A stretch of DNA of 37,648 nucleotides, taken from an uncultured Bdellovibrionales bacterium (GTDB lineage: Bacteria > Patescibacteriota > Minisyncoccia > Moranbacterales > UBA1568). Shown piece by piece: positions 1-16,573 of the stretch. The notes under the pieces were generated by a model. That model was not told where the DNA came from and ran no database searches. It saw nothing but the letters and a program-made list of their open reading frames with translations. Numbering within the stretch: the first letter of the stretch is position 1; every line of letters starts with the position of its first letter. The position numbers were made by a program, and so were the translations under genes. Location: NCBI GenBank assembly GCA_964500865.1, contig CAZCQJ010000004.1:21377-59024 (forward strand), written 5' to 3'.

Positions 1-141
1 GGAAAAATCGCCGGCACGGTAGTGGTGTCCAGCATGAGCTGTAGCCACAGTAATTCTGTGTCCCGCTGCCGCGCAGTACACAACATCGCTTGGCCGGCGC
101 TTCTGGTACTCTGGTATGGGCATTGATTGTGGTGTTTGCAT
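1..141 (-). CDS. hypothetical protein, N-terminal part only (continues past window start); micro-ORF D of a coupled chain
   Basis: ATG at 139-141 is preceded by GGAGGAAGTG and overlaps the TGA of the upstream micro-ORF (TGATG). The frame is open to position 1 (MQTPQSMPIPEYQKRRPSDVVYCAAAGHRITVATAHAGHHYRAGDF...). It is not in the ORF track because it is truncated and short. Confidence 0.3.
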   Translation of the reverse strand, partial: MQTPQSMPIPEYQKRRPSDVVYCAAAGHRITVATAHAGHHYRAGDFS

Positions 142-305
142 CACTTCCTCCTTTTCCTACCATTGGTGGCCGAGATTTTTCCCGACCGGTGTTTCGAACG
201 AGACGGTTTGCGTTCCTTCTTTGACGAAGGGATGAATGGCAGCGATGGCGGCTGATTCCTAAATGCAGCCATCAGGATCACCATTATACCTAGTGGGTAA
301 CGCAT
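141..305 (-). CDS. 54-aa small protein with a hydrophobic N-terminus and strongly basic tail (micro-ORF C)
   Basis: GGAGGAGAGTG lies immediately upstream of the ATG at 303-305. Translation: MRYPLGIMVILMAAFRNQPPSLPFIPSSKKERKPSRSKHRSGKISATNGRKRRK. Its tail is paralogous to micro-ORF A, with mostly synonymous codon differences. Confidence 0.5.
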   Translation of the reverse strand: MRYPLGIMVILMAAFRNQPPSLPFIPSSKKERKPSRSKHRSGKISATNGRKRRK

Positions 306-329
306 CACTCTCCTCCATCTTCCAAAAAC

Positions 330-509
330 TTACGCCGTGGCACGTATTTTGGCTTTGGTCCACAGGTGGGCCTTGCCAAGCCGGTGACATAAGCGCTGCA
401 CGCCTGGCAGACCTCGTTGAGCGAGAGACTGTATTATAGCCACATGAGCCTCATGTTCATGCGCTAACTTGGCACGCTGCATGAGCTCCCTTCTAGTAAC
501 TTTGCCCAT
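330..509 (-). CDS. 59-aa hypothetical protein (micro-ORF B)
   Basis: GGAAGGAG lies 8 nt upstream of the ATG at 507-509, and that ATG overlaps the TAA of micro-ORF A (TAATG). Translation: MGKVTRRELMQRAKLAHEHEAHVAIIQSLAQRGLPGVQRLCHRLGKAHLWTKAKIRATA. Confidence 0.4.
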   Translation of the reverse strand: MGKVTRRELMQRAKLAHEHEAHVAIIQSLAQRGLPGVQRLCHRLGKAHLWTKAKIRATA

Positions 510-667
510 TATCGCGACTCCTTCCTTCGTTTACCGTGGGTATCCGAGACCTTCCCAGAACGAAACTTTGAGCGACTCTGCTGTTTGGCGTCTGACTTTT
601 TGTTGCTTCTATATCTCCTTCCGGGTGGCTGTTTCTTTCTCTGGATTCTCCTTCTCAAGAGACGCAT
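509..667 (-). CDS. 52-aa highly basic small protein (micro-ORF A)
   Basis: An internal ATG at 665-667 of track ORF 509..730 is preceded by AGGAGGG. Translation: MRLLRRRIQRKKQPPGRRYRSNKKSDAKQQSRSKFRSGKVSDTHGKRRKESR. It starts 15 nt after the yidD stop. Confidence 0.45.
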   Translation of the reverse strand: MRLLRRRIQRKKQPPGRRYRSNKKSDAKQQSRSKFRSGKVSDTHGKRRKESR

Positions 668-681
668 GCTTAAACCCTCCT

Positions 682-921
682 CTACTCTTCTGGCACAGGA
701 TCGTGCCCACCTGGGTGCCAAGGATGACAACGCAAAAAGCGTCTTACTCCCATACTGCTCCCACGCATAACGCCAAAACGCTCGATAGCGGTATACGTGT
801 AAGCACTACAACTTGGGTAAAAGCGGCACACCCGAAAACCCGTCACTTTCCCCACGAATCCGTGATCCAGCGAAAGGGTCTTTTGGTACCAGCGAATACA
901 CAAGAGAATGAGCTGCTTCAT
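682..921 (-). CDS. yidD: membrane protein insertion efficiency factor YidD
   Basis: Contains the YidD signature [19 protein letters not shown]...[14 protein letters not shown]. The family-typical start is MKQLILL (ATG 919-921); the track ORF extends to 951. Confidence 0.85.
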
Positions 922-15520: not shown

Positions 15521-16573
15521 TTAGTAAGATTTTAGGGCTGATAGCCCTGGCATTGGCTCGCCAGCTAAAAAGGCGAGCATAGCGCCGCCGCCAGACGACA
15601 CCACATCGATAGTATGAAAAACACCTGCCTGCTGCAGCGCCAGGAGTGACTCCCCGCCCCCAGCAATCACGTGGGCGTCGCTGCCAGCCAGGGCTTTGGC
15701 AATAGCCATAGTACCCGTATCATAGGGCGCTTCTTCGAACTTCCCCAGAGGGCCATTCCATACAATGGTGCCCGCATTCTGGATATGCTCGGTGAATAAC
15801 CGCACGGTAGCATCACCAATGTCTAGGCGACTACTACTTCCACTTTCACTGTCATTCTCGTTCCGGTAATCTACTGGCAACAGCACATTTTCTTTTAGGG
15901 TAATGTTCTGGTCTACGGCTTCGTTCGCAATACGGCCACCCAAAAGCACGGTATCGTATTTTTTTTCAAATACGTGTATCAGCGGCAGCTTGGTCTCAAT
16001 TTTGGCGCCACCCAAAATGGCGAGGGCCGGGCGACCAGGGTGTTCCAGGGCTTCGGTAAGATCTTTTACTTCTTTGGCTAAATGCACACCTGCAACGCTG
16101 GGTAAAAACTTAGTAATCGCCGCGACCGACGCATGGGCCCGGTGACACACACTAAAGGCTTCGTTAACGTAGAGGTCAAAACCAGCGGCTAACTTTTTAG
16201 CAAATACTGGGTCGTTTATTTCTTCTTCTTTGTAAAAACGGACGTTCTCGAGCAGCGTAATACTCCCCGCCTGAAAAGCTGGTTTTTGGAGGGCGTCACC
16301 CAAAAAACGAACCGGGCGTTTTAAAACCGCTGTAAGGGGTGCTGTGAGTCCACGGGTCGAAAACTGCGGGTCGACTTTTCCTTCTGGCCGGCCAAAGTGC
16401 GTAAGGAGCGTTACGCTGGCACCCGGGAAACGCAAAATGGCATCGACGGATTCCTTCAGAAGCTGCAGCCGAAAGTTTTCGCTTGGGTCTGCAGCGTGCT
16501 CGAGTGAAATATTGCCGTCAAAACGAACAAGAACTTTTTTATTAGTACAGTCTGTAGCTTTCAAAAAATGCAT
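15521..16573 (-). CDS. pgk: phosphoglycerate kinase
   Basis: Contains VLVRFDGN, LLTHFGRPEG and GGGESL...GGGA. The likely start is MHFLKATD (ATG 16571-16573), because the longer track ORF would overlap mraY. Confidence 0.9.
   Translation of the reverse strand: MHFLKATDCTNKKVLVRFDGNISLEHAADPSENFRLQLLKESVDAILRFPGASVTLLTHFGRPEGKVDPQFSTRGLTAPLTAVLKRPVRFLGDALQKPAFQAGSITLLENVRFYKEEEINDPVFAKKLAAGFDLYVNEAFSVCHRAHASVAAITKFLPSVAGVHLAKEVKDLTEALEHPGRPALAILGGAKIETKLPLIHVFEKKYDTVLLGGRIANEAVDQNITLKENVLLPVDYRNENDSESGSSSRLDIGDATVRLFTEHIQNAGTIVWNGPLGKFEEAPYDTGTMAIAKALAGSDAHVIAGGGESLLALQQAGVFHTIDVVSSGGGAMLAFLAGEPMPGLSALKSY

Follow-up and report, generated by a model that had tools for sequence, protein, structure and literature searches.

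What is encoded in the ~680 bases downstream of yidD in an uncultivated Moranbacteria genome, and are the short reading frames found there real genes? The bases in question open a stretch of 37,648 nucleotides (nt) (G000:C4:21377-59024), hereafter the window, for which an earlier sequence-only reading had proposed a chain of coupled micro-genes of no known family. Here we show that the region is filled by four tightly packed small open reading frames (ORFs) on the minus strand, A, B, C and D. Judged by the way in which they differ, A and C are true paralogs under protein-level selection, and D, by its match to family profiles, is a member of an undescribed, clade-restricted family of four-cysteine (Cys4) mini-proteins. 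We think it rather probable that the stretch is a polycistronic small-protein operon, lying in a hypervariable slot between yidD and the CIRCE (controlling inverted repeat of chaperone expression)/hrcA-grpE-dnaK locus that is typical of this Moranbacteria family.

ORF A (509..667, minus strand) encodes a polybasic peptide of 52 amino acids (aa) with an isoelectric point (pI) of 12.0 and 22 lysine and arginine residues, and AGGAGG stands 8 nt before its ATG. ORF B (330..509, minus strand; 59 aa) is also basic (pI 11.6) and is rich in histidine (5 His), with AGGAG 8 nt upstream. In ORF C (141..305, minus strand; 54 aa, pI 12.0) a 13-residue hydrophobic N-terminus is followed by a QPP motif and a polybasic tail; a GTG at 308, one codon upstream, is an alternative start. 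ORF D (1..141, minus strand) comprises the N-terminal 47 codons of a Cys4 mini-protein and is open at the window edge. Each of the four has a Shine-Dalgarno (SD) sequence, AGGAG or GGAGG, 5-8 nt ahead of its ATG. The stop codon of A overlaps the start codon of B (TAATG), C and D share a TGATG in the same way, and 24 nt separate B from C. The SD of the next gene is embedded in the tail coding sequence of the preceding ORF, so that its purine-rich letters themselves encode the final K/R/G/E residues of the tail. The frames and their coordinates, the SDs, the two overlapping junctions and the supply of an SD by the preceding tail had all been pointed out in the sequence-only reading, and all of them hold.

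Strong SDs of this kind are uncommon in the genome. On both strands of the whole genome, 276 sites combine AGGAG or GGAGG with an ATG, yet only 84 of them head ORFs of at least 100 aa, and ORFs of 45-99 aa follow at 49 (0.032 per kb per strand). The genome-wide rate predicts ~0.02 strong SD-led small ORFs in 0.68 kb, against the four that are seen. Though rare genome-wide, a strong SD is carried by every small ORF of the yidD-hrcA slot, both here and in relatives. A consensus scan found neither an internal promoter nor an internal terminator between A and D, and no other long reading frame was found on either strand of the region.

A paralogous polybasic pair

Evidence for coding comes from the tails of A and C. 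The 15-codon tail block of A (533..577, minus strand) aligns with that of C (159..203, minus strand), and both tails read SRSK[FH]RSGK[VI]S.T.G. At eight of the first nine codon pairs the two tails show synonymous differences only, among them a switch between AGT and TCT for serine. The whole block has 17 nucleotide differences, of which 4, 3 and 10 fall at the first, second and third codon positions, and 11 of the 15 residues are identical. Random placement of 17 differences reached 11 identities in a fraction of 3.5e-5 of the trials (P = 3.5e-5), and the remaining five frames of the block gave at most 9/14 identities. As 11 identical residues are retained despite 17 nucleotide differences, our results indicate that the tail is kept at the peptide level. 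The run of synonymous codons pointed out in the sequence-only reading is thus confirmed, and the paralogy is further supported by BLASTP of A against C (E = 2.6e-6). A six-frame search of the 760-kb genome with C returned A (E = 1.3e-4) and nothing else. Synonymous divergence (dS) between A and C is saturated, and the ratio of nonsynonymous to synonymous divergence (dN/dS) is ~0.18 over the whole alignment. What is new here is this paralogous polybasic pair, with synonymous sites as the evidence for its selection.

Outside the tail the two peptides are less alike. The hydrophobic N-terminus that had been noted in C is present but extends over only ~13 residues, and such a segment is absent from A; membrane targeting of C is possible, given this segment. 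A QPP or PP(G) motif recurs at residues 13-16 of A, at residues 18-20 of C and in peptides of two relatives, G022 and G121. Motifs of the PPG type are known ribosome-stalling, EF-P-dependent sequences, and it is only an idea that they might modulate the coupling to the next gene.

Wide searches with the pair returned no relative. No candidate was found with C alone in an index of 5.8e9 proteins, and the ESM Atlas gave no usable match to C. The tail pattern, offered in the sequence-only reading as a motif for searching related genomes, could be searched for but yielded no confirmed relative of A or C in 185,579 species genomes and viral contigs. A profile of polybasic peptides (A3), run against the genus and the large index, recovered nothing beyond the sequences that it was built from and close relatives of the peptides of G011 and G002. 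One assignment of A, to Phage_tail_S (E = 0.029), was rejected as sub-threshold noise.

D and the four-cysteine mini-proteins

Unlike A and C, D belongs to a family with many members in related genomes. Residues 16-45 of D match the family alignment A4 with an hhalign probability of 86.8% (E = 4.3e-6), and a profile built without D (A2) found D in the whole genome at E = 1e-4. D is 55% identical to the copy in G121, and its visible part has the features of the N-terminal half of the family, namely a hydrophobic pair, a Cys, a turn of small residues and Gly, a hairpin and a helix. Clustering of the slot ORFs gave one large group of 26 members, D among them, and several related groups. Across the alignments A1, A2 and A4, either all four Cys or three of them never vary, and any other Cys is at least 90% conserved. 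The short subfamily has the spacing C-x24-C-x2-C-x5-C, with invariant residues C13, C38, C41 and C47, and the orthologs that form the subgroup of D have a C-terminal C-x2-C-x2-C.

The family is narrowly distributed. There were 11 matches among 5.8e9 proteins, and an exhaustive HMMER search of 1.84e9 representatives gave 30 matches, all of 59-125 aa. Members were found in 20 of 88 genomes of one Moranbacteria family (two genera) and in none of 213 genomes of eleven other families of the order. All family matches in 50 genus genomes, and the four matches examined in the second genus, sit between yidD and hrcA, often as tandem paralogs; D itself lies 540 nt downstream of yidD, directly ahead of the gap that precedes CIRCE/hrcA. 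Fused double-Cys4 proteins of 121-154 aa were also observed (P0018, P0021 and the oriented interval 1087-1551 of L059, in G112), which is consistent with tandem duplication followed by fusion. A second match to the Cys motif in our genome (contig C3, positions 15678-15740) was dismissed, as it is weak and falls among junk ORFs that overlap one another.

An AlphaFold model of a 59-aa member has a predicted local distance difference test score (pLDDT) of 79.7 and shows a compact hairpin plus helices; the model of an 88-aa ortholog of D is poor (pLDDT 57.9). With the 59-aa model, Foldseek returned nothing at E <= 0.001 and a wide VIA-align structural search gave no meaningful match (best Z 2.6). 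A search of PDB sequences likewise gave no significant match for the Cys4 family, and Pfam, NCBIfam, PHROGs and PADLOC gave only sub-threshold noise for A to D. Together with the empty Rfam search described below, these results agree with the earlier remark that no known family could be recognised.

That D is partial, as had been proposed, is correct, but the window edge is not the whole cause, because a scaffold gap of ten N immediately precedes window position 1. Roughly 14 wastewater and activated-sludge runs contain the locus. A wastewater contig of run X3 runs 122 nt past the gap, and its last 30 letters lengthen D by 10 codons, among which there is neither a stop nor a Cys. No other part of the assembly was found to carry this extension.

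The yidD-hrcA slot and how it may be explained

How typical is this arrangement of the clade? In 40 relatives, a DNA search found conservation limited to yidD. The order yidD-then-hrcA is nevertheless seen in 43 of 47 yidD loci recovered from 50 genus genomes, with an interval of 302-2332 nt and 0-6 SD-led small ORFs in it. Of 65 junctions between ORFs of the slot, 48 are overlaps or gaps of at most 30 nt, and orthologous slot ORFs in relatives have dN/dS values of 0.04-0.5, which points to purifying selection there. A basic ORF stands directly ahead of a Cys4 ORF at 10 junctions by a rough classification, and the order basic-Cys4-basic-Cys4 in G023 and G011 echoes that of A-B-C-D; in many relatives only one of the two kinds is present, either Cys4 genes or a basic peptide. 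In terms of gene content among relatives, the region is a hypervariable, clade-specific yidD-hrcA slot.

Polybasic ORFs of similar composition occur in the same slot of other species. The peptide of G121 is related to that of G022 (E = 3.7e-6), the match of C to the G121 peptide is weak (E = 0.11), and the peptides of G011 and G002 have signal-like N-termini. The polybasic, signal-like gene of G121 (L069:574-774) lies in a ~170-nt insertion that is absent from the sister species G007, where the interval is otherwise 72% identical. In both G121 and G007 the array ends in what looks, on visual inspection of the alignment, like a terminator, with a hairpin followed by a run of T. A second conserved family was also observed in the slot, a 69-aa ORF that starts with ATGCCACCGC and has a basic tail, in L069 (G121) and L054 (G007); the two copies are 75% identical with a dN/dS of 0.16, and G114 and G122 have related ORFs (E about 2e-5) at the first position of their slots.

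The flanks of the slot are well defined. Our assembly (G000) is 760 kb in 26 contigs, 93% complete and 47.6% in GC content, and the long genes of the window read normally under translation table 11. NCBI lists a protein from a locus of the same genus under Candidatus Moraniibacteriota. The GC content of window positions 1-680 is 52%. The first gene of the operon, yidD (682..921, minus strand), matches Pfam YidD (E = 9.7e-26) and TIGR00278 (E = 1e-22), and is oriented divergently from corA. Beyond the gap, on the same (minus) strand, a CIRCE-like repeat and a promoter are followed by hrcA, grpE and dnaK. The inverted repeat AGCACTC-N9-GAGTGCT (L002:9953-9990, just past the gap) overlaps a sigma-70 promoter that matches 11 of 12 consensus positions, TTGACA-17-TATACT, and this promoter implies that hrcA has its own; the layout is also kept in G121 and G007. 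The sequence-only reading took this position to be the usual place of yidC, and this does not hold, as the conserved neighbour in the clade is hrcA. The classical cluster has the order rpmH-rnpA-yidD-yidC. In our genome yidC and rpmH are together on a separate contig (G000:C3:55945-57238; the genuine rpmH at C3:57107-57238, E = 2e-20), which indicates that yidD is detached from the classical cluster in this clade and that no gene is missing after it. An exact look-up of A, B, C and yidD (with its start here) found none of them in the public collection; D was not among the sequences looked up. A metagenome scan with yidD gave 65% identity at best, with no close relative and no orthologs of A to D, and did not close the gap.

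We argue that these observations are best explained by the polycistronic small-protein operon outlined above. The sequence-only reading held that the ORFs are real genes, and the constraint on A and C, the family membership of D and the dN/dS of the slot orthologs all speak for it. A to D would be transcribed from the yidD promoter, and B and D would be translated by termination-reinitiation after A and C, which would tie the output of each downstream gene to that of its polybasic upstream gene. D is predicted to carry a metal centre made of one N-terminal Cys and a C-terminal Cys triad, for which the spacing of the short subfamily, or C-x2-C-x2-C in the subgroup of D, would favour an iron-sulfur (Fe-S) cluster, with zinc as the alternative. 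With a pI of 12, A and C may bind a polyanion through their conserved tail, whether nucleic acid, the ribosome or the inner membrane face. The short hydrophobic N-terminus of C could serve as an anchor that leaves the tail in the cytoplasm, as the positive-inside rule would have it, and both peptides are possible partners of the predicted Cys4 protein.

Several points weigh against this explanation. A to D are known here only as sequence. No ortholog of A, B or C was found in 107 family genomes, in 185,579 species genomes or in large protein sets (5.8e9 clusters and, for B and C, the ESM Atlas). In one strain contig, that of run X3, a 1-nt indel shifts the reading frame of B. The C-terminal region of D, where the Cys triad would be, falls past the 10-N gap and out of view. 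As the insertion of G121 is missing in G007, polybasic genes seem to turn over quickly. Lastly, a codon-usage frame test did not favour the frames of A and C and was ambiguous for B and D; since it also misses roughly a third of the conserved Cys4 ORFs, the test counts as weak evidence against coding. Two metatranscriptome runs gave contigs over hrcA and yidD/corA only, at 90-95% identity, and as these come from another species with a different slot, they have no bearing on the expression of A to D.

B is the least certain gene of the four. The indel lies in a GGG run (368..370), which has one base fewer in the wastewater contig of run X3; the deletion shifts the last 13 codons of B and gives a 67-aa form, the stop codon of which overlaps the start of C as TGATG. 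The contig of run X1, the likely source run, matches the window at this position, and both contigs have a depth below 5. The ESM Atlas gave no usable match to B. That B is a degenerate Cys4 gene was rejected, as hhalign gave it a probability of 0.07% against A4 and 0.17% against A5; a Smith-Waterman comparison with one Cys4 member gave z = 7.1 at the P-G-x4-C region and is unsupported by profiles. A likeness by eye to ORFs of G114, G122 and G023 was not backed by BLASTP. The proposal of a duplicated two-gene module thus stands for its first half, A and C being paralogs, but not for its second, as B and D differ widely in their match to A4 (0.07% and 87%).

The main rival explanation is that only D is functional, and that A, B and C are short-lived ORFs, either young, fast-turnover proto-genes or decaying copies, that have been kept because their translation delivers ribosomes to the next start, the peptides having no role of their own. 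The orphan status of the three ORFs, their atypical codon usage, the strain indel in B and the gain or loss of a polybasic gene between G121 and G007 would fit such an explanation, as would the fact that the last residues of the tails are encoded by the SD of the next gene. However, the block of A and C that lies upstream of this SD is kept at the amino-acid level while its DNA has diverged to saturation, including a switch between the six-fold serine codons, which pure coupling does not require. The strong SDs on all four ORFs, in a genome where such SDs are rare, also speak against it. We therefore regard this explanation as fairly unlikely.

A more specific form of the operon reading can be drawn by analogy. 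A Cys4 Fe-S mini-protein, resembling the cluster domain of WhiB, and a polybasic peptide that would serve as its nucleic-acid-binding tail in trans could form a two-part sensor-regulator over the coupled genes, with the stop-start coupling setting their ratio, and, from their place directly upstream of CIRCE/hrcA, could link redox or metal status to the control of stress genes. We consider this quite improbable; if it were true, it would be a regulator class without a described relative, in genome-reduced bacteria of the candidate phyla radiation (CPR).

It is very improbable, in our view, that A/B and C/D are toxin-antidote or peptide-immunity pairs, for example a cationic peptide that is secreted or acts on membranes, together with a partner that protects against it. 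The genes are indeed small, paired and coupled in a variable locus, and a hydrophobic N-terminus that resembles a signal or an anchor precedes the cationic tail in C and in the polybasic peptides of G121 and G011. Against this, A has no hydrophobic segment, B and D are mutually unrelated, and many relatives have a Cys4 gene but no basic peptide, or vice versa. The positive-inside rule is well established, and dense positive charge right after the hydrophobic segment would argue against Sec export. None of A to D matches a toxin, antitoxin or defence family in Pfam, NCBIfam, PADLOC or PHROGs, and the idea of toxicity and rescue raised in the sequence-only reading finds no support.

Could the Cys-bearing small ORFs and their neighbours instead be precursors of ribosomally synthesized and post-translationally modified peptides, akin to SCIFF or ranthipeptides? 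The products are small, the family of D has C-terminal cysteine clusters and the locus is hypervariable. In ~47 genomes, however, no gene for a maturase (radical SAM or similar), protease or transporter lies in or beside the slot, and wherever both flanks were recovered they are yidD and hrcA with small ORFs between. Moreover, the family model folds as a compact hairpin-plus-helices domain at the pLDDT given above, and exactly four Cys are invariant or nearly so, as expected of a metal site. We give such precursors hardly any weight.

The last explanation, that the region is a non-coding structured RNA or a decayed larger gene with accidental ORFs, could appeal to the lack of a long ORF, to the absence of the sequences looked up from the public collection and to the weak codon test, but it is largely refuted and barely credible, as Rfam gave no match at the gathering score or even at E <= 1 (a covariance match being what the sequence-only reading named as evidence against genes), the folding z-score of -0.02 shows no excess of RNA structure, neither strand has an alternative long frame, and the SD/ORF enrichment, the synonymous pattern of A and C and the family membership of D favour coding.

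That a clade of tiny CPR genomes keeps and diversifies an array of mini-proteins beside a heat-shock operon implies a selected function that standard annotation has missed. Within this array, A and C are a clean case of two short, unannotated peptides under protein-level selection, which could be recognised from their letters alone. Should the Cys4 proteins turn out to bind Fe-S or zinc, with the polybasic peptides as partners, an uncultivated phylum would have in this operon a new small module for regulation or protection. Otherwise, the locus would still be a natural example of the birth, duplication and loss of small genes in a conserved slot.

Comparison with known systems

The closest analogy to the Cys4 family is found in the WhiB-like (Wbl) [4Fe-4S] proteins (PF02467) of Actinobacteria and actinophages, which are likewise small. 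Both have an N-terminal Cys followed ~24-28 residues later by C-x2-C-x5-C, which in the short subfamily often reads C-x2-C-P-[AV]-R-x2-C, and the spacing of the short subfamily falls within the WhiB pattern C-x(14-29)-C-x2-C-x5-C. The top PDB sequence matches of the Cys4 family are WhiB and the MutY Fe-S loop, both non-significant (E = 0.6-0.8). The subgroup of D differs from WhiB in its C-x2-C-x2-C. The Cys4 family lacks two features of WhiB, a G[VI]WGG turn and, after the last Cys, a basic C-terminal tail; no A4 member continues for more than 19 residues past that Cys, and 10-15 are typical. Pfam WhiB matched 2 of 21 Cys4 members, at best with E = 0.066 and below the gathering cut-off. Its hidden Markov model was positive on the control, Corynebacterium glutamicum, but gave no match over the cut-off in the 50 genomes of the genus and none within the slot. 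WhiB was not among the 30 matches of the exhaustive profile search, nor is it listed among the weak fold matches of the Cys4 model (best Z 2.6), and the host phylum differs (CPR here, Actinobacteria for WhiB). By this analogy Cys4 proteins may work like WhiB, without being members of its family.

For the polybasic peptides, two other comparisons can be made. Type I toxins such as Hok, Fst and TisB, and other small membrane proteins, resemble C and the peptides of G121 and G011 (~55-67 aa) in their short hydrophobic N-terminus and strongly charged C-terminal tail. In contrast to type I toxins, with their control by antisense RNA, the ORFs described here are coupled within an operon and led by strong SDs, no hydrophobic part is present in A and there is no family match; unlike in small anchored peptides, the conserved part of A and C is the tail and not the hydrophobic segment. 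The ribosomal protein bL34, usually encoded beside rnpA-yidD-yidC, is similar to A and C in its size (~50 aa), its pI (~12) and its position beside yidD. The identification of A and C as bL34 (PF00468) was rejected, as there was no match at E <= 10 and the genuine rpmH is beside yidC on contig C3.

As a locus, the slot recalls the minimal mobile elements of Neisseria, in which conserved flanks, here yidD and hrcA, likewise enclose a species-variable content of small genes. Repeated homology arms or mobility genes were not seen in the slot, though no search was aimed at them. Unlike in the minimal mobile elements, the content of the slot is dominated by one paralogous family that is restricted to it.

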